NCBI GenBank assembly: GCA_035622275.1
Contig: DASPVQ010000020.1
Coordinates: 86,067 to 150,066, forward strand
Source: Thermoplasmata archaeon
GTDB lineage: Archaea; Thermoplasmatota; Thermoplasmata; Lutacidiplasmatales; UBA184
Length of the DNA: 64,000 nucleotides
Direction of reading: 5' to 3'
This document shows positions 2,195 through 60,490 of this stretch, one piece after another. The notes below the pieces were generated by a model, which saw nothing but the letters and a program-made list of their open reading frames with translations, was not told the origin of the DNA and searched no databases. Both the position numbers and the translations under genes were made by a program. The number at the start of each line of letters is the position of its first letter. Positions within the stretch are counted from its first letter, which is position 1.

Positions 2195-2880
2195 GCGCGC
2201 ACGAGGAGCGGGTCGACGACGCCGGCGGCGGCGAAGCCACGCGCCCTCAGCCGGCAGGCGTCACAGCGGCCGCAGGGCCGCGTCCCGCCCGCGTAGCAGC
2301 TCCACGTGAGCGCCCACGGAACGCCGAGCCGCTCGCCGGCGCGCACGATCTCGGCCTTGGTCCACCGCAGGAGCGGGGCCCGGACCCGCAGGCGCGCGCG
2401 ACCTTCGACCCCGCGCCTCGTTCCGAGCCGGGCCACGCGCTCGAACGCACGGAGGAACTCCGGCCGGCAGTCCGGGTAGCCGGAATAATCGATCGCGTTC
2501 GCGCCGAGGTAGATCCGATCGAGGCCGTGGGACTCGGCGTAGCCCAGGGCGAGCGCGAGGAGGACCGTGTTGCGCGCCGGCACGTACGTCGCCGGGATCG
2601 CGCCAGGGCGCGGTCCGCCGCGCGGGAGCGCCCTCCTCCGGTCCGTGAGCGCCGAATCGACGAGCGACGCGATCGGGACCCGGACCACGACGTGCCGCCG
2701 GGTCCGGAATCGGCGGGCGAGAGCGCGCGCGGAGCGGACTTCGCGCGCGTGCCGCTGGCCGTAGAGGACGGTGAGCGCATGGACCTCCCGATGCGCGCGC
2801 CGCGCGATCGCGAGGCAGGTCGCGGAGTCCATGCCGCCGGACAGGAGGACCACCGCCCCACGGCGCCGCTCCGGATTCAC
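2191..2880 (-). CDS. queC: 7-cyano-7-deazaguanine synthase QueC
   Basis: The PP-loop VVLLSGGMDSATC and the C-terminal Cys cluster CxxC...CGRCDAC match QueC. It is 229 aa when started at GTG 2880, which overlaps the stop of the upstream gene (GTGA). The listed 376-aa ORF is read-through into the neighbouring gene. Confidence 0.85.
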   Translation of the reverse strand: MNPERRRGAVVLLSGGMDSATCLAIARRAHREVHALTVLYGQRHAREVRSARALARRFRTRRHVVVRVPIASLVDSALTDRRRALPRGGPRPGAIPATYVPARNTVLLALALGYAESHGLDRIYLGANAIDYSGYPDCRPEFLRAFERVARLGTRRGVEGRARLRVRAPLLRWTKAEIVRAGERLGVPWALTWSCYAGGTRPCGRCDACRLRARGFAAAGVVDPLLVRA

Positions 2881-3638
2881 AGCGCCCCTCCGGCGGCCAC
2901 CACCACGAGCGCGGCGATCCCAACGGCGGCGAGCATGCCGAGGAAGTTCGTCGATCCCTTGGAGAGGTACCCGCGGTTCTCCAGGGTCTCGCCGAGCACG
3001 GAGTCGATCTGACATCCCACGAAACCGGCGACGACGACGGTGATCAGGAACAGCGGGAAGTCGGGCAGCGGCGTCGCGAACAGTCGGAACAGCCCGAGCC
3101 CCACGATCGCCGTCGTCCCGGCGCCGACGAACGCCCAGGCCTCGCCGATCCCCGAGACCCCGCCGTTCGTCCCGGGCGGGACCGGTCGCAGCGTGAGGAT
3201 GCTGCGCGCGCGACCGGCGAGGACACCGAGCTCGCTCGCGAAGGTGTCCGCCGCGCCGAAGGCGAGGGCGCTCGCATAGAGCACCGCGAGGGCCGGCATC
3301 GGGAGCGCCGGCGGCCCCCATCCCCCCGCCAGCGCGAGCCCCGTGGGGATCACGATGTGCGCGACGACGTTCGATACCCCGCGCTCGCCCGAGGCACCCT
3401 CCTGGACCTGCGCCCGCCGCTTCTCGTCGAAGCGGAACCGCGTCACGGCGACGCTCGCCACCACGAACAGAATCATCATCGCCAGGAACGGGAATCCCGC
3501 GAACACCACGATCACGATGCCGAAGGCGGCGGCGACCCCGCCGGCGACCGGCGTCAGGGCCCGGGCCGCAACGGCGCCCAGCGCGAGGGCGACCGTGACG
3601 AGCGCCCCCGCGAGTGCCGGCCAGAACGAGAGCACCAA
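2877..3638 (-). CDS. DUF92/TMEM19-family integral membrane protein
   Basis: The protein is 253 aa, multi-pass hydrophobic and Gly/Ala-rich, typical of the DUF92 family. It is translationally coupled to queC. Confidence 0.55.
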   Translation of the reverse strand: MVLSFWPALAGALVTVALALGAVAARALTPVAGGVAAAFGIVIVVFAGFPFLAMMILFVVASVAVTRFRFDEKRRAQVQEGASGERGVSNVVAHIVIPTGLALAGGWGPPALPMPALAVLYASALAFGAADTFASELGVLAGRARSILTLRPVPPGTNGGVSGIGEAWAFVGAGTTAIVGLGLFRLFATPLPDFPLFLITVVVAGFVGCQIDSVLGETLENRGYLSKGSTNFLGMLAAVGIAALVVVAAGGAL

Positions 3639-9564: not shown

Positions 9565-10467
9565 ATGCGGATCGTCTCCGTTCTCCCCAGCGCGACCGAG
9601 ATCGTCTTCGTCCTGGGGCACGGCGCGGAACTGGTCGGCCGCAGCGCGGAATGCGACTATCCCCCCGAGGTCGCTTCGCTCCCGGTCGTCATGCGGCCGC
9701 GGACTCTGGACCTCGACCGCTCCTCCGCGGAGATCGACCGACGCGTGCAGGACGTCCGCGGGCGGGACGAGAGCCTCTACGATCTCGACATCGACCGCCT
9801 AAGCGAACTCGCGCCGGACCTGATTCTGACGCAGGACCTGTGTCGGGTCTGCTCGGTGACCGATGCCGAGGTCGCGAGCGCGTGCGCGCGGGCGGACGTG
9901 GCGCCGAGGATCGTCTCGCTCACCCCGAGGACGCTCGCGGGCGTCTTTGCGTCGATCGAGGCGGTCGGTCGAGCGCTGGAGGATCCCGCACCGGCGCGAG
10001 CGCTGACCCGACGCCTGCGGGAGCGCTGCGCCCGGCCCCCGGGTCCCGCCGTCGCTCGGGTCGCGGTGGTGGAGTGGCTCGACCCCCCGATCGTGGCCGG
10101 GCTGTGGACACCGGACATCGTGCGGGCGGCGGGCGGGGAGTCGATCGGCCCGCGGTCCGGCCGGCCGGGCGAGCGCACGGGCTGGGCTCGGCTCTCCTCC
10201 GATCCCCCCGACCTCCTCGTGCTGTCTCCCTGCAGTTTCTCGGTCGATCGCTCGCGTCGCGAGCTCGAGGCCCCCGCGCTGCGTCGCGCCGTCGCCGGGG
10301 TGCGGGCCCCGCTCGGGACGTTCATCGCGGACGAGGCCTACTTCTCCCGACCGGGGCCGCGCCTGGCCGACGGGGTCGAGCTCGTGCGGCACCTGCTCGC
10401 GCGAGCCCCCTGGGACCCGCCGATGCCGGTGGCGCCGTACGCGGCCGGGCCGGAGGCGGCGGCATGA
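9565..10467 (+). CDS. BtuF/TroA-like (class III) substrate-binding protein lacking a signal peptide
   Basis: The N-terminus RIVSVLPSATEIVFVLG is the BtuF-like mature start. ILTQDLC and VVEWLDPPIVAGLWTPDIV blocks are also present. There is no hydrophobic leader or lipobox. Confidence 0.6.
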   Translation: MRIVSVLPSATEIVFVLGHGAELVGRSAECDYPPEVASLPVVMRPRTLDLDRSSAEIDRRVQDVRGRDESLYDLDIDRLSELAPDLILTQDLCRVCSVTDAEVASACARADVAPRIVSLTPRTLAGVFASIEAVGRALEDPAPARALTRRLRERCARPPGPAVARVAVVEWLDPPIVAGLWTPDIVRAAGGESIGPRSGRPGERTGWARLSSDPPDLLVLSPCSFSVDRSRRELEAPALRRAVAGVRAPLGTFIADEAYFSRPGPRLADGVELVRHLLARAPWDPPMPVAPYAAGPEAAA

Positions 10468-11162
10468 GCTCGGGGATCCCCTACACGTACAGTTGGACGG
10501 CGACCGAGCCGGCCCGGGGGCGGATCACGACCTCCCGCCAGGAGGTGCTTCAGATCAGCGTCGCGTTCGCGGTCCTCACGCTCGACTTCGTGCTGATCCT
10601 GTTCGTGGGCGGGGTGTTCACCGGGAGCAGCGTCAGTTCGATCGTCGCCGTGCCGCTCGACCTCGTCGGGTTCGCCGCCCTCGTCGCGCTCACCGCGTTC
10701 GTCTGCCACGAGCTCGCCCACAAGATCTCGGCGCAACGCCACGGCTACTGGGCCGAGTTCCGCTGGTCGCCGATCGGACTGGCGTTCTCGGTGGTCACCG
10801 CCTACCTAGGACTCCTGTTCGCCGCGCCGGGAGCGACCGTGATCGGCGGCATGGGCAACGTCCGCGACTGGGGCCGGACGAGCCTCGCCGGGCCGCTCAC
10901 GAACCTGTCGTTCGCGGCCGCGTTCTACGCGGGAGCGACCGCGGCGTGGTTCTTCGCGAGCCCGCTCTACTTCTGGCTGCTGCTGCTGGCCTGGTTCAAC
11001 TCGTTCTTCGGCGTGTTCAACCTCCTGCCCTTCGGCCCCCTCGACGGCGCGAAGGTCCTGCGCTGGAGCAGCGCGATCTGGGTCGTCGCCTTCGTCGTCG
11101 GCGTTGCGGCGGCCGTCGTCTCGTATCTCGCCGTAGTCGTGGTCGGACGGCCGGTCCTGTAG
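10464..11162 (+). CDS. Site-2 protease family (peptidase M50) membrane metalloprotease
   Basis: The HELAHK (HExxH) motif sits in a TM helix. The NLLPFGPLDG (LDG) motif is present. It is multi-pass, and its ATG overlaps the upstream stop (ATGA). Confidence 0.7.
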   Translation: MSSGIPYTYSWTATEPARGRITTSRQEVLQISVAFAVLTLDFVLILFVGGVFTGSSVSSIVAVPLDLVGFAALVALTAFVCHELAHKISAQRHGYWAEFRWSPIGLAFSVVTAYLGLLFAAPGATVIGGMGNVRDWGRTSLAGPLTNLSFAAAFYAGATAAWFFASPLYFWLLLLAWFNSFFGVFNLLPFGPLDGAKVLRWSSAIWVVAFVVGVAAAVVSYLAVVVVGRPVL

Positions 11163-11171
11163 GAGGAGGTC

Positions 11172-12158
11172 GTGTCCCGTCCGCGCCTCCGGGAGCTCGG
11201 GCGCGATCGCCAGCTCATCGACACTGACTTCCGCGACACCGAGGGGCTCGTCGCCGCCTATCTCGTGCCGGAGGAGGAGGGTTGGATGCTCATCGAGACC
11301 GGCCCCACGAGCTGCCGGGAGGCGCTGCTCGCCGGCATCGATCGGGCCGGGGTCGAGCGCGCGGCGATCCGGCACGTCCTGGTCACCCACATCCACCTCG
11401 ACCATGCCGGCGGCGTCGGGGCGCTGGCCGACGCGCTCCCGCGCGCGACGTTCTATGCGCACGAGCTCGGCGTCCCGCACCTGATCGATCCGACGCGCCT
11501 GATCGCGAGCGCCCGGCGGGCCTGGGGCGCGGCGGCGGACCCCCTGTGGGGACCGATCGTCCCGGTCGCGGCCCCGAGGATCCAGGCCCTGCGCGGCGGG
11601 GAGCGCTTTCCCGTCCGGGGCGGGGAGGTCCGCGTGCTCGCGACGCCCGGGCACGCCCGGCATCACCTCGCCTTCTTCGATAGCGCGATCCGCGGGGTGT
11701 TCACGGGTGACGGGGCGGGCGTGCGCCTGGAGCACAGCCCGCGCGTGCGCCCGGCGGTGCCCCCTCCGGATCTCGATCTCGAGCAGCTCTTCGCGAGCGT
11801 CGAGGCGATGCGGGGCCTCGACCCGGTGCTGGTGCTCTACAGTCACTTCGGACCGAGTCCCGACGGTGCCGCGGACCTCGCGCGCTATCGCGGCATCGTG
11901 GAGGCCTGGCGGGACGTGGCGCTCGCCGCGGCGCGGGAGCGGGCCGACCCGGACTACGTCGCCGAGCGGCTGCGCGAGTTCGACCGACGGGGCGTCGAGC
12001 CGGCGGGCGCGGCGCGCGCGGGGACCGACGACCGCGCGGTCCTGGTCTCGGGATATGACCTGGCCGCGCGCGGATTTCTGCGCTACTTCGAGACCCGCGG
12101 GGTGGTGACGGTCCCGGGCGAGCGCGAGGGATCCGGTCCGGTCAGTCCACGAGCGTGA
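11172..12158 (+). CDS. MBL-fold metallo-hydrolase
   Basis: The metallo-beta-lactamase motif HVLVTHIHLDHAGG is present. It is 328 aa. Confidence 0.7.
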   Translation: MSRPRLRELGRDRQLIDTDFRDTEGLVAAYLVPEEEGWMLIETGPTSCREALLAGIDRAGVERAAIRHVLVTHIHLDHAGGVGALADALPRATFYAHELGVPHLIDPTRLIASARRAWGAAADPLWGPIVPVAAPRIQALRGGERFPVRGGEVRVLATPGHARHHLAFFDSAIRGVFTGDGAGVRLEHSPRVRPAVPPPDLDLEQLFASVEAMRGLDPVLVLYSHFGPSPDGAADLARYRGIVEAWRDVALAAARERADPDYVAERLREFDRRGVEPAGAARAGTDDRAVLVSGYDLAARGFLRYFETRGVVTVPGEREGSGPVSPRA

Positions 12159-13970: not shown

Positions 13971-14255
13971 GTGCCCGTCGTGGACATGAGCCACGAGGCG
14001 AGGCGACAGTTCTTGCTGCTCCCCCCAGAAATCGCCGACCGGTTCAAGGAGCTCGCGGACCATCTCAGGGAGAACCCCCACCGACTCCCTCCTTGGTGTG
14101 AGGTGAAGTCCATCGGTCGAGAGGGCGGAAAGGAGGTCTTTCGAGCACGTGTGGGCGAGTATCGCGCGTCCTACGTGTTCGATGGGGAGGTCATTCGATT
14201 CACACGATTCCGCTTACGGAAACACATGGGCTATTCCTCGCTTCCGAAGTCGTAG
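13971..14255 (+). CDS. RelE/ParE-family toxin
   Basis: It is 94 aa and basic. The stretch VGEYRASYVFDGEVIRFTRFRLRKH resembles the RelE/ParE core. It forms an operon with the upstream RHH gene. Confidence 0.55.
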   Translation: MPVVDMSHEARRQFLLLPPEIADRFKELADHLRENPHRLPPWCEVKSIGREGGKEVFRARVGEYRASYVFDGEVIRFTRFRLRKHMGYSSLPKS

Positions 14256-16255: not shown

Positions 16256-17731
16256 ATGGCGATGCGGGAACCGGCCCCGCTGGACCTGTTCGCGTCGCGA
16301 CTGATGCGTCGCTTCCGGATTCCGGGACTATCGCTCGGAATCTCGAGGAACGGCCGACCGATTTTGTCCCGGGGCTACGGCTGGCGCGACCGCGAACTTC
16401 GACGGCCCGCCTCCTCGAAGACGGTGTACGGGATCGCCTCGATCACGAAGTCGTTCACCGCGCTCGCCATACTGCGGCTCGAAGAGGAAGGACTCCTGCG
16501 GGTGACGGACCCCGTCGTGCGCCATCTTCCGGAGTTTCGGAGTCCGAATCCCCGCTGGACGGCGAAGATCTCGCTCCACCACCTCCTCACCCACTCCTCC
16601 GGAATGCCGCCGTTGGCAGGGACGTACCTCTCCCAGCTTCGTTCGCGCGCCCGCGACCCGTCCTTCGACGCGCGCTCCGTCCGGCGGGTGGGCATCGACC
16701 TTGAGGCGGGGCCGCTCGACAGCTTCGAACAACTGCTGGAGTACCTCACTACGGTGCGGTACCAACCCATCGCTCCGCCGGGCCATCAGTTCAGCTACTC
16801 GAACGAGGGGTTCATGCTGCTCGGGGCGGTGATCGAGCGCAGCGCCGGCCGCACCTACGAGAACTATCTCGACGAGCAAATCCTACGACCGTGTGGAATG
16901 CGGCACACGACCTGCGATGCCGGGATCATGCTTCGCTACCCGGAAGTCACCACCCTGTACTCACCACAACGAATCCGATCCCGCGTGCGGATGGTCCCCT
17001 CCCAGAACTGCGGCATGGCCGGGATCCTCCGACCGGCGGGTGGACTGCTGACCAATATCGAGGACCTTCTGCGCTACCTCGAGATATTCCGCACCGGAGG
17101 GAGAGCCGGCCGGGAGCGGATCCTGACCCCGAAGAGCGTGAGCAAGATGCTCCGTCCCGCCATCCCCATCGACACGGACCGTTTCTACGGCTACGGCATC
17201 GTGGTTCGACCCGCCTACCATGGTCACTTGGTCGCGTACCATGGCGGCGGGACGAAGGGCGTCTCCTCAGAGTTCGCGGTCGTTCCACGCAAGGGCATCT
17301 GCGGGGCGGTTCTGGCCAACGTGGAGCGCGTCCCGTCGTTCAACGTCCTGTTCGCGGGGATCAATCGACAGCTCGGGTTACCGATGTCGACCCCGTTCTT
17401 CGAGACGCCGTCCGTGGTCTCCCGCGCCGGTCCGCTCGCGGAGTTCGAGGGGTGGTACTGGGGCGGGGACGGCTTCAAATGCAACGTGAGGGCGGGTCGG
17501 CGCGAACTGACCCTACGTTTCTGGGAGCTCGATGGTAACACGCACGTCGTCCGCGCGGCGCCGTGCGGAACCGATCGATTCTTGATTCGGCTCTTTGGCC
17601 TTCCGTGGACCATCAGATTCGTGCGGGATGCTTCGAAGCGGGTGTCCGCGGTGTTCGTGTCGTACTGGTGGTACCGTCGCCGCACCGAGCAAGAGGTTCG
17701 ACACGGCCGACGAAACCGGTTCGCCTGGTGA
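16256..17731 (+). CDS. Serine hydrolase of the beta-lactamase / penicillin-binding-protein (class C-like) family
   Basis: The SxxK active-site motif SITKSF is present, along with YSNEGF (YxN-like) and HGG (KTG-position) motifs. It is 491 aa. Confidence 0.75.
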   Translation: MAMREPAPLDLFASRLMRRFRIPGLSLGISRNGRPILSRGYGWRDRELRRPASSKTVYGIASITKSFTALAILRLEEEGLLRVTDPVVRHLPEFRSPNPRWTAKISLHHLLTHSSGMPPLAGTYLSQLRSRARDPSFDARSVRRVGIDLEAGPLDSFEQLLEYLTTVRYQPIAPPGHQFSYSNEGFMLLGAVIERSAGRTYENYLDEQILRPCGMRHTTCDAGIMLRYPEVTTLYSPQRIRSRVRMVPSQNCGMAGILRPAGGLLTNIEDLLRYLEIFRTGGRAGRERILTPKSVSKMLRPAIPIDTDRFYGYGIVVRPAYHGHLVAYHGGGTKGVSSEFAVVPRKGICGAVLANVERVPSFNVLFAGINRQLGLPMSTPFFETPSVVSRAGPLAEFEGWYWGGDGFKCNVRAGRRELTLRFWELDGNTHVVRAAPCGTDRFLIRLFGLPWTIRFVRDASKRVSAVFVSYWWYRRRTEQEVRHGRRNRFAW

Positions 17732-19505: not shown

Positions 19506-20675
19506 TTGGCACGCTCAGTGTCTTTTGCCTCGACCGAGATTCGGAACCCGATCGTCCTTTCCCGACAGGAGTGGGTCAAGGTCATCTTGATCTACGCCGG
19601 CATCGCCGCCGCGACCGGCGTCGGGATCTATCTTACCTTCTGGGTCGGTACCCAGTACGCGATCTTCTGGCCGCTGGGCATCCTGGCCTACACGCTGGGT
19701 CTACGGCACGGCGTGGACGCCGACCACATCTGTGCCATCGACAACACCACGCGCAAACTGATCCAGCAGGACAAGCGCCCGACCACGGTCGGGACCTGGT
19801 TCTCCCTGGGTCACTCGACCATCGTCGTCGCCATGCTGGGTCTGCTGGTCGTGGCCAGCCGATTCATCGAGAGCAACCTGCCCGCCTTCGAGGCCGACGG
19901 AGCGATCTTGGGCACGATCATCTCCGGAGCGTTCCTCTACATCATCGCGCTGATCAACTTCCTGATCTTCTGGCAGGTCTATCTCATCTACCGGGAACTC
20001 CGGACGGGCCGGCTCGACCAGAAGAAGCTGGACGAGACGCTGCTGAAGCGGGGCTTCATGAATCGCTACTTCGGCAAGCTGTTCCGATTCGTCAACGAGC
20101 CCTGGCAGATCTATCCGATCGGGGTGCTGTTCGGACTTGGCTTCGACACCGCGTCCGAGGTCGCTCTGATCGCGATCACGGTGACGACGGCCGCCCTCGC
20201 GTTCCCGCTGTGGATGGTGATGGTGCTGCCGTTCATGTTCACCTGCGGCATGGTCCTCACGGACACCACCGACGGATTCGGGATGCGCTTTGCCTACGGG
20301 TGGGCCTTCATGAAGCCGATCCGGAAGGTCTACTACAACCTCACGATGACGGTGATTTCGGTCCTCGTCGCCATCGTGATCGGGACGATCGAACTGCTCG
20401 GAGTGCTCGCCTCGGAGCTCAATCTGAGCGGGGGACCGTTCGGGTTCTGGAACACGATGAACTGGTTGAACAACTCGAATGGGCCCGGCGACATCGAGAT
20501 CTGGGGCTGGTGCGGGATTCTCATCATCGCGCTGTTCTGCGGGTGTTGGGCGGTCTCTATCGCGATCTATCGATGGAAACACATCGAGGACGTGGGGTTC
20601 GGCAAGCCCCCGACGCCGGTGAACCCGGTCGACGCCGCGCCGGAGCCGGGCACTTCCTCCTCAGAACCTGCGTGA
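19506..20675 (+). CDS. NiCoT-family nickel/cobalt transporter (HoxN/NixA-like)
   Basis: The signature HGVDADH (HX4DH) lies in TM2, and GHSTIV is present. It is multi-pass. The start codon is uncertain (TTG 19506 or GTG 19518). Confidence 0.75.
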   Translation: MARSVSFASTEIRNPIVLSRQEWVKVILIYAGIAAATGVGIYLTFWVGTQYAIFWPLGILAYTLGLRHGVDADHICAIDNTTRKLIQQDKRPTTVGTWFSLGHSTIVVAMLGLLVVASRFIESNLPAFEADGAILGTIISGAFLYIIALINFLIFWQVYLIYRELRTGRLDQKKLDETLLKRGFMNRYFGKLFRFVNEPWQIYPIGVLFGLGFDTASEVALIAITVTTAALAFPLWMVMVLPFMFTCGMVLTDTTDGFGMRFAYGWAFMKPIRKVYYNLTMTVISVLVAIVIGTIELLGVLASELNLSGGPFGFWNTMNWLNNSNGPGDIEIWGWCGILIIALFCGCWAVSIAIYRWKHIEDVGFGKPPTPVNPVDAAPEPGTSSSEPA

Positions 20676-20909: not shown

Positions 20910-22826
20910 GTGGCGGGCGCAACCGCGGCCGTCGACCAGGTCCTCGTCGCGGACGCTTCCGATAAGCAGCTCCGCCGCGCGCTGTCGTTTCAAGATCTCT
21001 TCATGATCTCGTTCGGCGGGGTCGTTGGCTCGGGCTGGCTCTTCGCCGTCGCGGCCTCCTCGCACCTCGCGGGCCCGGCCTCCGTGGTGTCGTGGATCAT
21101 CGCGGGGATCTTCATGATCGCCATCGCCCTCTGCTTCTCCGAGACGGCTTCGGCCCTGCACAAGACGGGCCAGCTCGTGCGCGGTCCGCTCTACACCCAC
21201 GGTGGTTTCACCGGGTACATCATCGGCGCCGCCTACATCCTCGGATCGATCACGGTCCCGGCGATCGAGGCCGAGGCCGTCATCACGTATGCGAGCACCT
21301 ACGAGCCGACGTGGCTGGGTTCGAACGGGCTGATCACTCCGACCGGCCTGGTCTTCGCCGTTCTGCTCCTGGTTGGATTCTTCTTCCTGAACTACGTCGG
21401 CGTGCGCTTCCTCGGCGCCTTCAACACGGTCGTGACGTGGTGGAAGTTCATCATTCCGGTGTTGACGATCATCTTCCTGTTCACGATCTTCCACTCGACG
21501 AACTTCACCGTGTCCGGCGGGTTCATCCCGTTCGGATGGCCCGGGGTCTTCATCGCGATCCCGTCGGCCGGCATCGCATTCGCCTACCTCGGGTTCCGGG
21601 GCGCGGCGCAGTTCTCGGGCGAAGCGAAGAACCCGCAGCGCGACGCGCCGAGGGCGATCATCCTGTCGATCACCGCGGCCGTGATCCTCTACGTCCTGCT
21701 CCAGGTCGTGTTCATCGGCGCCATCAACTGGGGCGCGAACGGTCTGGCGCCGGGCGACTGGGCCGGCCTGAGCTCGGTCACGACGACGCTGTACTCGGCG
21801 CCGTTCTACACGGTCATGCAACAGGCCAGCGTCGCGCTGCTCGGCGGGTTCGCGACGATCCTCCTCATCGACGCCATCATCTCGCCGTCGGGGACCGGTT
21901 GGGTGTTCCTGGGGGAGGCGACGCGCGCGGTCTACGGAGTCGGCGCGGACGGATTCTTCCCGCGGGGCCTATTGAGCATCCAGCGCCGGACCCGGATCCC
22001 TTGGGTCGCGCTCATCGCGACGACGGTGGTCGGCGGGATCTTCATCATACCGCTGCCGTCCTGGTACCTGTTTGCCGGGTTCGTGACCGACGCCTTCACC
22101 ATCTCGCTCCTCATGGGACCGCTGACCCTCTTCGTTCTACGCTGGCACGCCCCGAACATCAAGCGGCCGTTCCAGTTGCCCGGCGCGCTGGTCGTCGGCG
22201 GCCTCGCCTTCGTCGGCGGCTCCCTCGTGATCTACTGGTCCGAGTTCGGCGGGCTCTTCTACGTCTTCTCGGTGATCTTCATGGTCCTCCCGCTGTTCTA
22301 CTTCTTCTACGCACCGCGGAACCTGGGGATCAAGCCGTCCACGGCGCTCGCGATCGGGATCGTCCAGCTGGCCGTGGTGGTGATCGACACCGTCTGGGGC
22401 TACATCAACCTCTACATCGGCAACGTCGTGTCGCTCAGCCCGACGCCCGTCACGGTCTCGAACTCGACCCTCACGATGACCTTCGCGATCTACTACGTGG
22501 TGCTCCTCCTCGCGATTTGGGTGCCCACGCTCGTGACGACGATGCTCGCCCATCCGGACGGCAGGCGCATGATGCGCGCGGGCTACTGGGTCCTGGTCCT
22601 GCTCTCGGTCGAGATGGTGCTCTCCTGGTTCTCGGTGCTCGGCACGTTCCCGTTCGGGCCGTTGAACGGCAACCCGTACATCCCGTTCCCCTACGACACG
22701 ATCGCGATGGCGATCATCGCCGCGGGCATCTACGCCTGGGGCCTCATGAGCGGCTACCGCACCAAGGACCTCGCCGAGGTCGAGGCCCTGATGGCCCGAC
22801 CCGAGGCGGACGCCGCCACGGCGTGA
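20910..22826 (+). CDS. APC-superfamily amino-acid permease
   Basis: It is 638 aa with about 12 or more TM helices. The stretch FMISFGGVVGSGWLF resembles the APC consensus. Confidence 0.8.
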   Translation: MAGATAAVDQVLVADASDKQLRRALSFQDLFMISFGGVVGSGWLFAVAASSHLAGPASVVSWIIAGIFMIAIALCFSETASALHKTGQLVRGPLYTHGGFTGYIIGAAYILGSITVPAIEAEAVITYASTYEPTWLGSNGLITPTGLVFAVLLLVGFFFLNYVGVRFLGAFNTVVTWWKFIIPVLTIIFLFTIFHSTNFTVSGGFIPFGWPGVFIAIPSAGIAFAYLGFRGAAQFSGEAKNPQRDAPRAIILSITAAVILYVLLQVVFIGAINWGANGLAPGDWAGLSSVTTTLYSAPFYTVMQQASVALLGGFATILLIDAIISPSGTGWVFLGEATRAVYGVGADGFFPRGLLSIQRRTRIPWVALIATTVVGGIFIIPLPSWYLFAGFVTDAFTISLLMGPLTLFVLRWHAPNIKRPFQLPGALVVGGLAFVGGSLVIYWSEFGGLFYVFSVIFMVLPLFYFFYAPRNLGIKPSTALAIGIVQLAVVVIDTVWGYINLYIGNVVSLSPTPVTVSNSTLTMTFAIYYVVLLLAIWVPTLVTTMLAHPDGRRMMRAGYWVLVLLSVEMVLSWFSVLGTFPFGPLNGNPYIPFPYDTIAMAIIAAGIYAWGLMSGYRTKDLAEVEALMARPEADAATA

Positions 22827-44188: not shown

Positions 44189-45130
44189 ATGACGCTGGTC
44201 CGCGGGCTGCGCGTCGGCCAGGTCGAGACACCCGACGGCACGAGCGGCGTCACGGTGACACTGTTCGTGCCTCCCGCACCCGTCGTGGTCGATGTGCGCG
44301 GGGGAGCGTCGGCCACCTTCGACATCGCCTCTCTGGGCCTCGACGCCACCTTCGGCCGACGCTGGGCGGTCTTCTTCGCCGGCGGCAGTCTCTTCGGCCT
44401 GGACGCCGCGCGCGGTGTACGGGTGCGTATCGCCGAGACCGGTGGGGGCCAGAGCGCTTTCGGGAACCCGAACCCCGTGATCCCGATCTCGGGGGCGGCC
44501 CTGTTCGACCTGCCCCGTCGTTCGGGCCCGGTCCCGGACTATCTGCCCCTCGGCTACGAGGCAGCTCGCCGCGCCGGCCGGGCGCCCGTGGCGTGCGGCC
44601 GAGTCGGCGCGGGCGCGGGGGCGACCGTGGGAAAGTACCTCGGACGGGCGCGCGCGATGCTCGGCGGGATCGGCTCGGCCGCGCGGCGGATAGGTCGGCT
44701 CGGTGCCGTGGGCGCGCTGGTCGCCGCCAACCCGGTCGGCGCCGTGCGCGATCCGTCCAACGGCCGCTGGCTGGCCGGCGCGCGCGGTCCGCGAGGAGAG
44801 ATCCAGCCGCCGATCGAGCGCGCCCGCGGTCGGGATCGACCGACCGGCACGACCCTCGCGCTCGTCGCAGTGGAGTTATCCGTCGGCCGAGCGGCGCTGC
44901 AACGGATCGCTGCGATGGCGCATGCGGGCCTCGCCTCCGCAATCCACCCGTTCCACAGCTCGACGGACGGGGACGCGGTGTTCGTGGCGTCGACGGGCGT
45001 CGTGCGGCGTTCGCCGAGGGAGGAGCGGCCCGGGGAGCTCGCGGACCGCCTGGGCACGGCGGCGTCGGAGCTCGCCGTCGCAGCGCTGCTCGATGCGATC
45101 CGGGCCGCGAACCGCTCCGCCCGTCGTTAG
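44189..45130 (+). CDS. DmpA/OAT-like (peptidase S58, Ntn-hydrolase fold) aminopeptidase family protein
   Basis: The protein is Gly-rich and beta-rich (GVTVTLF, ACGRVGAGAGATVGK, TTLALVAVE), consistent with the S58/DmpA family. Confidence 0.55.
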   Translation: MTLVRGLRVGQVETPDGTSGVTVTLFVPPAPVVVDVRGGASATFDIASLGLDATFGRRWAVFFAGGSLFGLDAARGVRVRIAETGGGQSAFGNPNPVIPISGAALFDLPRRSGPVPDYLPLGYEAARRAGRAPVACGRVGAGAGATVGKYLGRARAMLGGIGSAARRIGRLGAVGALVAANPVGAVRDPSNGRWLAGARGPRGEIQPPIERARGRDRPTGTTLALVAVELSVGRAALQRIAAMAHAGLASAIHPFHSSTDGDAVFVASTGVVRRSPREERPGELADRLGTAASELAVAALLDAIRAANRSARR

Positions 45131-45705
45131 CCGGTCGCGCGGCGACGCAGCGGTGTCCCTCGAAGCCCGCGGATCAGGTCGGTCTTCGTGGCGATGCCGA
45201 TCGGCTCACCACGACGGGCGACGAGGACCGCCGGGTACCGTCCGAAGAGTCCGGGGAGGAGCTCGGCCGGGAACGCCTCGTCCACGACCGGGTAGGCGCT
45301 CTCGAGGATGTCGCCCACCCGGGTCCGCTTCGCCCCGGGCAGCGCGAGGGCTCGCAGGAGTCCCGCCTCGCTCACCGAGCCGACGACCCGCCCCTCCTCG
45401 ACGACGGGTAACTGGGAGAACGCCCCGCTCTCGAGACGGTGCGCGGCCGTCGCGAGGGTGGCGGTGGAATCGATCGTCACGAGCTCGCGGTTCATGATGT
45501 CCGCGACGGTCAGTCGCGGCGTCCGCGTCCCTTCGTGCATCTCGAGATAGGCGAGGATCCGCTGTACGAGCTCGTAGGAGGGTCGGATCTGGCCCCGCTC
45601 GATGCGCGAAAGGGTCGCGGTGCTGCGCCCGACGGCCCGCGAAAGCTCACCCAGCGAGACCCCGAGGGCCGTGCGGCGTTTGCGGACCTCGGTGAGTTCG
45701 TCCAT
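45127..45705 (-). CDS. HTH (XRE-type) plus CBS-pair transcriptional regulator
   Basis: The helix-turn-helix LGELSRAVGRSTATLSRIERGQ is followed by two CBS motifs. The start is at ATG 45705. Confidence 0.7.
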   Translation of the reverse strand: MDELTEVRKRRTALGVSLGELSRAVGRSTATLSRIERGQIRPSYELVQRILAYLEMHEGTRTPRLTVADIMNRELVTIDSTATLATAAHRLESGAFSQLPVVEEGRVVGSVSEAGLLRALALPGAKRTRVGDILESAYPVVDEAFPAELLPGLFGRYPAVLVARRGEPIGIATKTDLIRGLRGTPLRRRATG

Positions 45706-45877
45706 GGCATCGCCCCAGGTCCGACCGGACCGACGGGGGCCGCTCGGCCGTACCGCGGTCCGCCGATATCCTTTCCCGGAGGCGGTCGGATAACTCGCCG
45801 CGCCGCCTCCCTCGTTCCCGGCGCTGAAATTCCCCGAAGGGTACAAGTTCCCGGACCGCTTCCCGGTGGGCGAGACC

Positions 45878-46138
45878 ATGAACGCGCCGTCCCGGCAGAT
45901 CTCGTGGATCAGCCCGCCGCCCGAGGTCTGCACGCTGTGCAAGGAGCCGCTCGGCAACCCGGCCGAGACCAGCTCCTGGAACGGCAGCCCGGCCCACCGC
46001 GACTGCGTCCGGGTCCATCTGCTGCAGCGGGACCCCGCGTTCCGGGAGACCGGCGAGGGGACCGACGCGCCCGAGGAGGGCGCCGACCAGTTCGACGGCA
46101 TCCTGCCCCGGGACGATGACGACGCGGACTTCGAGTGA
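45878..46138 (+). CDS. Possible small Cys/His-containing protein
   Basis: It is about 86 aa with CTLC...HRDC and an acidic tail. It sits in an otherwise unassigned 500-bp gap. This may be a spurious ORF. Confidence 0.2.
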   Translation: MNAPSRQISWISPPPEVCTLCKEPLGNPAETSSWNGSPAHRDCVRVHLLQRDPAFRETGEGTDAPEEGADQFDGILPRDDDDADFE

Positions 46139-46171
46139 GCCGGATCTGTCGCTTCCGGCGCTTCGCAACCG

Positions 46172-46178
46172 ATAAAAA
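46172..46178 (+). promoter_or_regulatory. Candidate TATA box (ATAAAAA) for the radical SAM gene, with SD GGAGGT at 46221-46226
   Basis: It is an AT-rich box about 55 bp upstream of ATG 46230. A Shine-Dalgarno sequence lies 4-9 nt before the ATG. Confidence 0.35.
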
Positions 46179-46229
46179 GGGGGCATTCGTGCTCGCTGCG
46201 ATTCTGACCGTCCAGGTCGGGGAGGTTCC

Positions 46230-47822
46230 ATGCCCGAGGTCGTGATCACGTGCGACTGGACGATGATGAGCAACCACCACGGCAAGGAGTTCCTCGGCTT
46301 CGGGACCACGACCCCGGCCTACCTCCTGCCCGAGTCGGTTTACGCCCGGATGTTCTACCCTCCGATGCCCGTCGACGAGCACGGCTTCCCGCGGCAGGCG
46401 CCGTACGGGATGCGGAAGATCGAGGCGGCCCTGATGGACGGTGGCTTCGATGCCCGCATCGTGCACCCGGGCCACCTCGACAAGTACATGCCGGGGGAGG
46501 CGAAGGTCCTCCTGATCTCAGGCCACGACTACTTCGGCCTCAACCCGCCGAGCTCTACGTTCGGCGGCGTGATGAAGAAGGAGCCGCTGAACTGCGTCAA
46601 TTTCAAGCGGATGCTGACCCAGCCCGCGGTCGTCGAGGCGCGCAAGCAGGGTCTCAAGATCATCGCGGGCGGACCGTGCGCCTGGCAGCTTTCGCCCGCC
46701 ACCCGGATGAAGCTGCCGTGGATCCAGGAGTTCCTCGACTCGTTCGGCGGGGTCGACGCGGTCGTCGAGGGCGAGAGCGACATCTTCGTCAAGGAGATCG
46801 TCGCGAAGGCACTGCGCGACGAGTTCCTGCCGCCGCACGTCGTCCTCAGCGCGAAGGAGGCGCCCAAGGTCGAGCAGATCTCCTCGATCCGCTTCCCGAG
46901 CGTCAACGGGCTCATCGAGATCGGCCGGGGCTGCTGCCGCGGCTGCTCGTTCTGCTCCGTCACGACGCGACCGACGCGCTGGTACCCCCTCGAGAAGATC
47001 GAGGAGGAGCTGAGGGTCAACGCCCGGCTCGGGATCCGCAAGGGCCTGCTGCACTCGGACGACGTCTACTTCTACGGCAGCCCGAACGTAATGCCGCACG
47101 AGGACAAGCTGATCCCCCTGCTCCGGCTCGCCAAGCGCTACTACGAGCAGGTCGGCTGGAGCCACGTCGCGGTCGCCTCCCTCATGACGAAGCCCAAGCT
47201 CCTGTCGAGGTGCGCCGAGGTCCTCGTCGACGACAAGCAGACCTGGTGGGGGGTCGAGGTCGGCGTCGAGACCGGCTCGCCGCGGATGATCACCGCCGCG
47301 ATGCCGGGCAAGGTCGCGCCGTTCAAGGCGTCGCAGTGGCCCGAGCTCGTCGTCCAGGCGGCGGGACTGATGAACGACAACCACGTCTATCCCGCCTGCA
47401 CGTTCATCGTCGGCCTGCCGCAGGAGACGGAGGACGACGTCGCGCGGACGATCGACCTGATCGACGACCTGTGGGACTTCAAGGCGATCCTCGTTCCGAT
47501 GTTCTTCGTGCCGCTCGGGCACCTCAAGTCCCGCGACTGGTTCCGCCGGGACCGTCTCTCGCCGCTCCAGGAGGAGCTGTTGAAGCGCGCCCTCACGCAC
47601 GGGCTGCGGCAGTCGCGCGGGCTGCTCAACGACTTCTTCGACTGGGAAGGCAACCACACGCGGCTCTACCGCGCGTCCTTCCGCCTGTTCATCAACTTCC
47701 TCGAGGGGATCACGAAGATGCACGGGCTCTACAGCCCGTCGCCGAAGCAGGGCCGCGACATCGTCGACCCGAACCGGTACCCGGATCGCCTCCCGGTCCC
47801 GACGATCCCGGTGCGCGAGTAG
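46230..47822 (+). CDS. B12-binding-domain radical SAM protein
   Basis: The radical SAM cluster motif is GRGCCRGCSFC (CxxxCxxC). An N-terminal Rossmann-like B12-binding-type domain is present. It is 530 aa. Confidence 0.8.
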   Translation: MPEVVITCDWTMMSNHHGKEFLGFGTTTPAYLLPESVYARMFYPPMPVDEHGFPRQAPYGMRKIEAALMDGGFDARIVHPGHLDKYMPGEAKVLLISGHDYFGLNPPSSTFGGVMKKEPLNCVNFKRMLTQPAVVEARKQGLKIIAGGPCAWQLSPATRMKLPWIQEFLDSFGGVDAVVEGESDIFVKEIVAKALRDEFLPPHVVLSAKEAPKVEQISSIRFPSVNGLIEIGRGCCRGCSFCSVTTRPTRWYPLEKIEEELRVNARLGIRKGLLHSDDVYFYGSPNVMPHEDKLIPLLRLAKRYYEQVGWSHVAVASLMTKPKLLSRCAEVLVDDKQTWWGVEVGVETGSPRMITAAMPGKVAPFKASQWPELVVQAAGLMNDNHVYPACTFIVGLPQETEDDVARTIDLIDDLWDFKAILVPMFFVPLGHLKSRDWFRRDRLSPLQEELLKRALTHGLRQSRGLLNDFFDWEGNHTRLYRASFRLFINFLEGITKMHGLYSPSPKQGRDIVDPNRYPDRLPVPTIPVRE

Positions 47823-59641: not shown

Positions 59642-60490
59642 ATGGACCCCTTATGCCCGCTCGGGCCTAGGCCGGTCGTGGCCGAAGGCTCGACGCCCCG
59701 CCGGTCGTCATCGCCGTATCTCTCGCACATCGTGGGCGACACGCTGCGCGACCTGCAGGAGCGCCGGCTGCTCGAGCTCGTGCGGGCCGCGCCGGTGCCG
59801 AACCATCTCGCGATCATCATGGACGGCAACCGGCGCTTCGCGGGCGCCCACGGCCTCGGCATCAAGGACGGCCACGCCGCGGGCCGCGACACCCTCGAGC
59901 AGCTGCTCAACTGGTGCCTCGAGCTCCAGATCCGGATCCTGACCGTCTACGCCCTCTCCACCGAGAACCTCTCCCGGTCGCCGGAGGAGGTCGAGGGACT
60001 GATGGACCTGTTCGACCGGGCCCTGCGGGACATTGCGGTGGACGAGCGCGTGCACCGCCACCAGATCCGGGTCCGGGTGATCGGCGACCGCGCGGCGCTC
60101 CCGGCACGCGTGCAGGAGGCGATCGGCATCGCGGAGCGGGCGACCGAGCGTTACGACGCCTACCAGTACAACGTCGCGCTGGCCTACGGCGGCCGTGACG
60201 AGATCGTCGAGGCGATCCGGGCGATCGCGAGGGAGGTTCGCGACGGGGCGCTCGACCCGGAGCGGATCGACTCGACGGCCGTTTCCCGCCACCTCTACAC
60301 GCGAGACCTGCCAGACCCCGATCTCATCTTCCGGACCAGCGGGGAGGAGAGGATCTCGAACTTCCTGCTCTGGCAGTCCGCCTACAGCGAGCTGTACTTC
60401 TCGGACGTGCTCTGGCCCGGCCTCACGCGCCTGGAGTTCCTCCGCGCGATCCGGGCGTTTCAGCTGCGTCGCCGTCGCTATGGGGAGTGA
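59642..60490 (+). CDS. uppS: cis-Prenyltransferase (undecaprenyl-diphosphate synthase family)
   Basis: The blocks HLAIIMDGNRRFA, DLIFRTSGEERISNFLLWQSAYSELYF and RRYGE are present. Confidence 0.85.
   Translation: MDPLCPLGPRPVVAEGSTPRRSSSPYLSHIVGDTLRDLQERRLLELVRAAPVPNHLAIIMDGNRRFAGAHGLGIKDGHAAGRDTLEQLLNWCLELQIRILTVYALSTENLSRSPEEVEGLMDLFDRALRDIAVDERVHRHQIRVRVIGDRAALPARVQEAIGIAERATERYDAYQYNVALAYGGRDEIVEAIRAIAREVRDGALDPERIDSTAVSRHLYTRDLPDPDLIFRTSGEERISNFLLWQSAYSELYFSDVLWPGLTRLEFLRAIRAFQLRRRRYGE

Follow-up and report, generated by a model that had tools for sequence, protein, structure and literature searches.

A putative GrsA-type tetraether ring synthase gene in a soil- or peat-type Thermoplasmata genome, with its promoter and neighbouring genes

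The grsA-like gene and its product

A 64,000 nt stretch of contig DASPVQ010000020.1 (GenBank assembly GCA_035622275.1, positions 86,067–150,066 of the forward strand; GC content ~72%; hereafter, the window) from a Thermoplasmata archaeon (Lutacidiplasmatales; UBA184) carries a gene for a 530 aa radical S-adenosylmethionine (SAM) protein that is probably a GrsA-type ring synthase and would then close cyclopentane rings in the glycerol dialkyl glycerol tetraethers (GDGTs) of the membrane. Judged by its sequence, the protein is an ordinary member of the known GrsA family and a close relative of GrsA itself (Sulfolobus acidocaldarius Saci_1585; Zeng et al. 2019). An earlier, sequence-only reading had recognised the 530 aa open reading frame (ORF) and its CxxxCxxC motif (GRGCCRGCSFC), both of which are confirmed, and had offered a lipid-modifying role as a hypothesis. 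That role is borne out and can now be specified as GDGT ring synthase; given the match to GrsA, the accompanying statement that the substrate was unknown was too cautious.

The assignment is carried by direct comparison with GrsA. In BLASTP searches the protein shares 48% identity over 409 aa (E 1e-141) with GrsA of S. acidocaldarius (WP_011278400.1), all 399 compared GrsA residues being covered. The reference was taken from the 'GrsA_outgroup sequences' sheet in supplementary file 8 of Li et al. 2024 (PMC11186832), where it is one of twenty 'GrsA' sequences. A scan of species-representative genomes returned related loci (given L-numbers here), and against the full-length GrsA ortholog of one of them, L066, identity is 46% over 472 aa (88% of the query; E 3e-159). 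The working cut-offs published for Grs proteins (E at most 1e-40, at least 20% identity and at least 70% coverage; bioRxiv 2022.08.15.504015) are exceeded by the protein against GrsA. The Sulfolobaceae loci of the scan are true GrsA orthologs, since L066 and L079 are 88% and 83% identical to the S. acidocaldarius protein and L075 is 99% identical to GrsA of Metallosphaera sedula. The suggestion that the Sulfolobaceae homologs are a patchily distributed paralog rather than GrsA was rejected by the same direct comparison with published sequences.

The ORF has a codon-position GC of 0.63/0.41/0.96, typical for coding sequence in the window, and the motif GRGCCRGCSFC occupies residues 232–242 of its product. 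Of the nine cysteines in the protein, C235, C239 and C242 are the only ones invariant over 46 homologs, and no auxiliary cluster is expected for this reason. A single CX3CX2C motif without conserved auxiliary-cluster cysteines agrees with what has been published for Grs enzymes. GrsA is of the same length class, likewise has a single CX3CX2C motif, and shares the N-terminal motifs MxNHHGKEFLGF, APYGMRKIEA and HDYFxxxPPSST.

Database searches returned more than 1200 homologs. Those at 66–88% identity are proteins of 530–532 aa from metagenome-assembled genomes (MAGs) of Thermoplasmata, while those at 47–57% identity come from other Thermoplasmata and from Bathyarchaeota. In the scan of species-representative genomes, the family was found at 44–50% identity in Aciduliprofundum, Bathyarchaeia, Sulfolobaceae, Caldivirga, Pyrobaculum, Nezhaarchaeota and others. 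This spread fits the organisms reported to cyclise GDGTs, namely Sulfolobaceae, Thermoproteales, Aigarchaeota, Bathyarchaeia and Thermoplasmata. A neighbour-joining tree places the window group (the protein and its near relatives) within the GrsA family and well away from the outgroups, which are canonical B12-radical SAM proteins. Within the family, one subclade holds the validated Sulfolobus GrsA together with Thermoproteales, Aigarchaeota and Thermoplasmatota of the Aciduliprofundum type, and a sister subclade holds the window group together with Bathyarchaeia, Methanolliviera and UBA186.

Besides this placement, the protein differs from GrsA by a 9-residue insertion near residue 160 and by a conserved 30-residue C-terminal tail ending in LPxPTIPVRE. 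In the window the tail (nt 47,721–47,819, residues 498–530) ends in RLPVPTIPVRE; it is kept in homologs at least 66% identical and is absent from GrsA of other lineages. The hosts also differ, being Thermoplasmata MAGs whose isolate names suggest soil or peat, not thermoacidophiles. Two further observations concern individual homologs. In L041 (nt 10,001–11,583; OY970259.1, a complete-chromosome MAG) the gene is represented by three tblastn pieces in different frames, either a pseudogene or the result of assembly indels. The homologs of L064, L013 and L037 lie on MAG contigs labelled as bacterial (Krumholzibacteriaceae, 'bacterium'), which could be explained by mis-binning or by transfer. Grs genes have been reported in Acidobacteriae.

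Predicted fold and proposed reaction

In an AlphaFold2 model of the 530 aa protein (pLDDT 89.4, pTM 0.90), an alpha/beta domain at the N-terminus is followed by a radical SAM barrel and by two long helices at the C-terminus. A Rossmann-like N-terminal domain, a partial TIM barrel and C-terminal helices are the layout described for GrsA models, and GrsA is said to have 'two elongated helices in its C-terminus', proposed to act as a membrane or substrate anchor (PMC11186832). The model matches the cobalamin enzymes MgmA, TsrM, CysS, TokK and OxsB over its full length, MgmA being the closest solved structure. Profile-profile alignment (hhalign) with four radical SAM proteins that carry the B12-binding Pfam domain (PF02310) gave a probability of 98.8% at 22% identity, with residues 58–442 placed on residues 25–401 and the N-terminal domains aligned with each other. 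The N-terminal domain thus appears to be remotely homologous to B12-binding domains. The sequence-only reading had described the protein as a class B enzyme with a cobalamin-type N-terminal domain and had looked to structure prediction for such features. The two-domain architecture stands, through remote homology and fold; a Pfam-detectable B12-binding domain was not found. Precomputed Pfam annotation of homologs lists PF04055 only.

The literature describes several radical SAM enzymes of the B12 type with archaeal tetraethers as substrates: GrsA, GrsB, TK0167, Cmaq_1853, Cgm, Pgm, Gmm and Ted. GrsB (Saci_0240), GrsA' (TK0167) and GrsB' (Cmaq_1853) belong to the same ring synthase family according to the literature and are likened here by description, the comparisons and the tree having been made without their sequences. 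The methylases Gmm, Cgm and Pgm and the desaturase Ted have the two-domain plan and a lipid substrate in common with Grs, and Tes (also GDGT-MAS, tetraether synthase) acts in the same pathway as GrsA and is likewise a radical SAM enzyme. Canonical B12-radical SAM proteins carry a B12-binding domain that Pfam detects, whereas the 530 aa protein does not, and a tblastn comparison gave nothing at 1e-5.

The reaction can be sketched by analogy with enzymes already characterised, following the summary of Zeng et al. 2019 given in PMC13459092. The substrate would be the saturated biphytanyl chains of membrane-spanning tetraethers (GDGT-0). The reduced [4Fe-4S] cluster would cleave SAM to give a 5'-deoxyadenosyl radical, and two C-H bonds, one at a methyl branch and one at a methylene four carbons away, would be activated in two successive SAM-dependent steps. 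Formation of a C-C bond would then close the ring, most likely at C-7, to yield GDGT-1 to GDGT-4. A cobalamin in the N-terminal domain has been proposed, without proof, to hold the first radical.

Several points weigh against the protein being a ring synthase of this kind. Identity to validated GrsA is only 46–48%, and it is from this figure that both ring formation itself and its position at C-7 are inferred. To our knowledge, no validated member exists in the subclade of the window group (soil-type Thermoplasmata and Bathyarchaeia). Related B12-radical SAM lipid enzymes can switch chemistry, as between Gmm homologs and the desaturase Ted. A survey of the window by Pfam on the 40 other ORFs and by tblastn with Tes, geranylgeranyl reductase and a canonical B12-radical SAM protein revealed no tes, geranylgeranyl reductase gene, second B12-radical SAM gene or other lipid gene in the 64 kb. 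PF02310 found no match in residues 1–227, even at E ≤ 10. Lastly, fold matches to the non-cobalamin enzymes MiaB, RimO and AprD4 equal those to cobalamin enzymes, and CheY-like domains match as well, so that the fold match does not discriminate cobalamin binding. Binding of the cofactor by the 530 aa protein is unproven, and a 2026 review treats cobalamin as a prediction for every Grs enzyme.

Some of these points bear on whether the protein could be a Grs-family enzyme with other regiochemistry or another product, for example one forming C-3 rings as GrsB does, acting on a different substrate or modifying the tails by desaturation. The window group branches in a subclade separate from the validated S. 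acidocaldarius GrsA, GrsA and GrsB are homologs that act at different positions, and divergence of chemistry among homologous B12-radical SAM lipid enzymes is on record (the methylases against Ted). On the other hand, near-full-length identity of 46–48% to GrsA is high for this superfamily, and the further ring synthase GrsA' still yields GDGT-1 to GDGT-4 according to a preprint. The N-terminal coiled coil reported for the GrsB clade (bioRxiv 2022.08.15.504015) is not seen in the model of the 530 aa protein, which opens directly with a beta-strand. A different product is accordingly given a small probability beside GrsA-type ring synthesis.

A non-lipid class B radical SAM enzyme, such as a protein or cofactor methyltransferase of the MgmA or MJ_1487 family, would suit the best NCBIfam hits, TIGR04013 (62 bits) and TIGR04014/MgmA (54 bits), and MgmA as nearest structure. 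No NCBIfam model passed, however, and these scores lie far under the cut-offs of 251 and 360 bits. MgmA (PDB 9ccb), the B12-dependent glutamine C-methyltransferase of methyl-coenzyme M reductase, is a member of a different family with a protein substrate, and is only 19–25% identical, compared with 48% for GrsA; the lineage, moreover, is without a methanogenesis context. The 530 aa protein falls in no characterised non-lipid subfamily, an outcome that the sequence-only reading had asked to see checked, and because of the GrsA match a non-lipid function is effectively refuted and extremely improbable.

Table 1. Features of the grsA-like gene and of the two genes upstream of it (positions in the window)
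Feature	Position (nt)	Strand	Basis
XRE-type helix-turn-helix + CBS-pair protein, 192 aa, starts MDELTEV, divergent from the small ORF	45,127–45,705	-	Pfam
Conserved 86 aa ORF, CxxC...HxxC zinc-finger-like core and acidic disordered tail	45,878–46,138	+	Codon GC, public annotation
Promoter block: TGTCGC (46,147–46,152), TCGCAAC (46,163–46,169), TATA box ATAAAAA (46,172–46,178)	46,147–46,178	+	38-locus alignment
Shine-Dalgarno-like GGAGGT, 3 nt before ATG	46,221–46,226	+	Sequence
grsA-like gene, 530 aa putative GDGT ring synthase homolog (radical SAM)	46,230–47,822	+	ORF list; GrsA similarity
N-terminal Rossmann/flavodoxin-like domain, ~residues 1–215, B12-binding-domain-like	46,230–46,874	+	Fold and profile-profile similarity
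Radical SAM core, residues 229–411	46,914–47,462	+	Pfam Radical_SAM, E 2e-13
CX3CX2C motif (C235, C239, C242), [4Fe-4S] cluster	46,932–46,955	+	Cysteine conservation
Two long C-terminal helices, residues 445–469 and 477–497	47,562–47,720	+	AlphaFold2 secondary structure

Promoter and leader

The TATA box and Shine-Dalgarno (SD) sequence noted in the sequence-only reading are both present (Table 1), and promoter and SD-like stretch are conserved in some 37 related loci. An alignment of the upstream regions of 38 loci gives a common order: TGTCGC, a gap of ~10 nt, TCGCAAC, a TATA box 53–72 nt upstream of the ATG, then a purine-rich stretch resembling an SD. Motifs were counted over 37 sequences. 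At least 24 have a TATA-like box, a figure from a conservative regular expression that overlooks the box of the window itself; TGTCGC is present in 16, nearly always ~24 nt from the TATA box, and 31 have a purine-rich SD-like motif within the last 16 nt. Conservation of the TATA and SD-like blocks across relatives points to a separate promoter between the small upstream ORF and grsA. With transcription predicted to start at the usual distance from the TATA box, near nt 46,200–46,206, the enzyme would be expressed from its own promoter via a leader of ~25–30 nt that includes the SD. The TGTCGC...TCGCAAC block is a possible operator or an extended TFB recognition element.

The leader had been set apart from the many leaderless genes around it. 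Among 45 predicted starts surveyed roughly across the window, strong SD motifs were scarce and A/T boxes at -27 to -37 occurred several times, in line with many leaderless genes; this is indicative only, because the start codons are uncertain. A stem-loop seems by eye to recur in the leader just 5' of the SD, but a selected hairpin or RNA thermometer was rejected, folding being no more stable than in shuffled controls (mean z -0.43; 38 loci, last 42 nt plus ATG, dinucleotide shuffles).

The small ORF and the HTH-CBS gene

Between the enzyme gene and a regulator gene further upstream lies an ORF of 86 codons. It had been described as a small Cys/His ORF on the opposite strand, which is wrong: over its three codon positions GC is 0.69/0.51/0.97, as opposed to 0.57/0.70/0.89 in the overlapping minus-strand frame, and public annotations call the gene on the plus strand, the same as the enzyme gene. 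It is found directly 5' of grsA in 33 related loci at 50–79% identity, two of them with GrsA at 70–72% identity, and reverse look-ups from two homologs of the small protein returned the same gene layout. Residues C18, C21, H40, C43 and H47 are invariant in the family. The AlphaFold2 model shows a zinc-knuckle core of a beta-hairpin and a helix (pLDDT 81–88) followed by a disordered acidic tail. The protein has no Pfam match, and Foldseek against PDB gave nothing significant, the best hits being zinc fingers of LIM/RING type (E 0.08). The family comprises 249 clusters; all that carry a source name are a 'hypothetical protein' of a Thermoplasmata archaeon, and no Pfam domain was present in any of the 120 clusters listed.

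The regulator gene, reported earlier as lying upstream on the opposite strand, is there as described. It encodes a protein with an XRE-type helix-turn-helix (HTH) (Pfam HTH_31 and HTH_3, residues 6–58) and CBS matches in two stretches. The true gene product is of 192 aa and not the 324 aa of the maximal ORF; gene calls in relatives range from 192 to 206 aa. In a sequence search of PDB, the matches were to the CBS part, including archaeal MJ1225 and MJ0100, with one weak match to the HTH part alone; no solved HTH and CBS fusion was found, and a literature search gave nothing relevant. MJ1225 and MJ0100 both bind adenosyl ligands.

The HTH-CBS protein had been called the enzyme's own regulator. 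A protein devoted to control of the radical SAM gene by sensing adenosyl ligands (SAM, AMP or ATP) would be in keeping with the archaeal CBS relatives just mentioned and with the position of its gene, less than 530 bp from grsA at 28 related loci as well as in the two reverse look-ups. The TGTCGC...TCGCAAC block just 5' of the TATA box could serve the protein as an operator, and small transcription factor genes of PadR and MarR/TrmB-like types stand beside grsA in other lineages too. The adjacency, however, is confined to loci with GrsA at least 77% identical, which is the case for all 28. These close loci share a larger syntenic block (major facilitator superfamily (MFS) transporter, S58 peptidase, JAB, NAD kinase and inositol monophosphatase (IMPase) genes), so that co-location does not show a dedicated regulator. 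The gene is absent beside GrsA at 67–72% identity (L001, L034–L038), in all distant loci, and at L015, L019 and L023, which belong to the close group and keep the small ORF. Its divergent partner, moreover, is the small ORF rather than grsA. A dedicated role for the HTH-CBS protein is regarded as unlikely. The 86 aa ORF is more tightly linked to grsA than the HTH-CBS gene, and to slightly greater depth; both are lineage-specific neighbours, and a functional tie of either to the enzyme is unproven.

A more elaborate scheme would have grsA of this lineage in a small control module, with the divergent XRE-HTH/CBS regulator reading adenylate or SAM status and binding TGTCGC...TCGCAAC at the grsA promoter, and the lineage-specific 86 aa zinc-finger protein, always encoded directly 5' of grsA, as a partner or modulator of the enzyme. 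We consider this quite improbable; if true, the module would be a molecular link between the energy state of the cell and GDGT ring number.

Wider gene neighbourhood

The genes around grsA in the window are of housekeeping type. Among their products are TruD, ATPases of the KaiC-like type, a Y-family DNA polymerase (IMS/impB family), a translation GTPase of the IF-2 type, TFB, NAD kinase, IMPase, an MFS transporter, an S58 peptidase, a protein with a JAB domain, a nuclease of the beta-CASP family and the glycine cleavage P-protein. The sequence-only reading had been prompted towards lipids by polyprenyl synthase genes in the window. One prenyltransferase is indeed present among the 40 other ORFs scanned with Pfam, but it is a cis-prenyltransferase of the UPPS family (nt 59,642–60,490) and the only one found. 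Members of the UPPS family make polyprenol carriers; the isoprenoid chains in core membrane lipids are not their products. A DUF92 integral membrane protein (nt 2877–3638), whose link to isoprenoids we assume, is with the UPPS gene the only isoprenoid-related candidate found in the window. Between nt 14,001 and 22,000 the GC content falls to 0.60–0.67, compared with ~0.72 elsewhere, and this may be acquired DNA; genes of the low-GC stretch encode a beta-lactamase-fold protein (nt 16,256–17,731), a NicO nickel/cobalt transporter (nt 19,506–20,675) and an amino acid permease (nt 20,910–22,826).

Across 84 related loci there is no family-wide conserved neighbour of grsA. Two distant relatives, L002 and L061, have a tes gene (NF045702, 586 and 579 bits, cut-off 450) and a geranylgeranyl reductase gene 2–4 kb upstream of the homolog, tes itself at 3–4 kb; this occasional linkage speaks for the ring synthase assignment. 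In four loci of Bathyarchaeia and Nezhaarchaeota, a canonical B12-radical SAM gene (456–488 aa) directly adjoins the GrsA homolog (L003:7499–8890, L054:1894–3264, L082:449–1840 and L074:12487–13953). The best NCBIfam model for these neighbours is BchE-like and scores below its cut-off. They may be related to the lipid enzymes Ted or Gmm, and their position fits a preprint report that the Ted gene is co-located with a ring synthase gene.

In two further loci (L052:8568–10001 and L072:491–1918), a radical SAM/SPASM gene (475–477 aa), itself preceded by a TrmB-like regulator, ends at or overlaps the 5' end of the gene for the GrsA homolog. Gms, the glycerol monoalkyl glycerol tetraether (GMGT) synthase, belongs to the SPASM radical SAM enzymes, but the neighbour in L052 and L072 exceeded the cut-off of no NCBIfam model, and an assignment to Gms could not be made. 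Small transcription factor genes upstream of the homolog differ by lineage (L043–L048, L057–L083): a pair of PadR genes in Bathyarchaeia and MarR/TrmB-like genes in hydrothermal Thermoplasmatota, with NikR-like genes in L051, L055 and L064.

Implications

Widely used proxies for palaeotemperature and pH are built on the numbers of rings in GDGTs, and it matters for this reason to know which organisms carry ring synthases. One recent survey found Grs homologs mainly in thermophiles and absent from mesophiles. The high-GC Thermoplasmata MAGs that carry the family have isolate names (SMAG, SPRUCE, MFD) that suggest soil, peat and similar habitats, and the presence of a GrsA-family gene therefore makes these archaea candidate sources of cyclised isoprenoid GDGTs there. 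For an enzyme that is probably an ordinary GrsA-type ring synthase, the remaining interest lies in its likely soil or peat host, in the promoter block, and in the zinc-finger ORF and the HTH-CBS gene as candidates for a part in ring control. The conserved promoter and these two neighbours offer testable handles on the regulation of ring synthesis.

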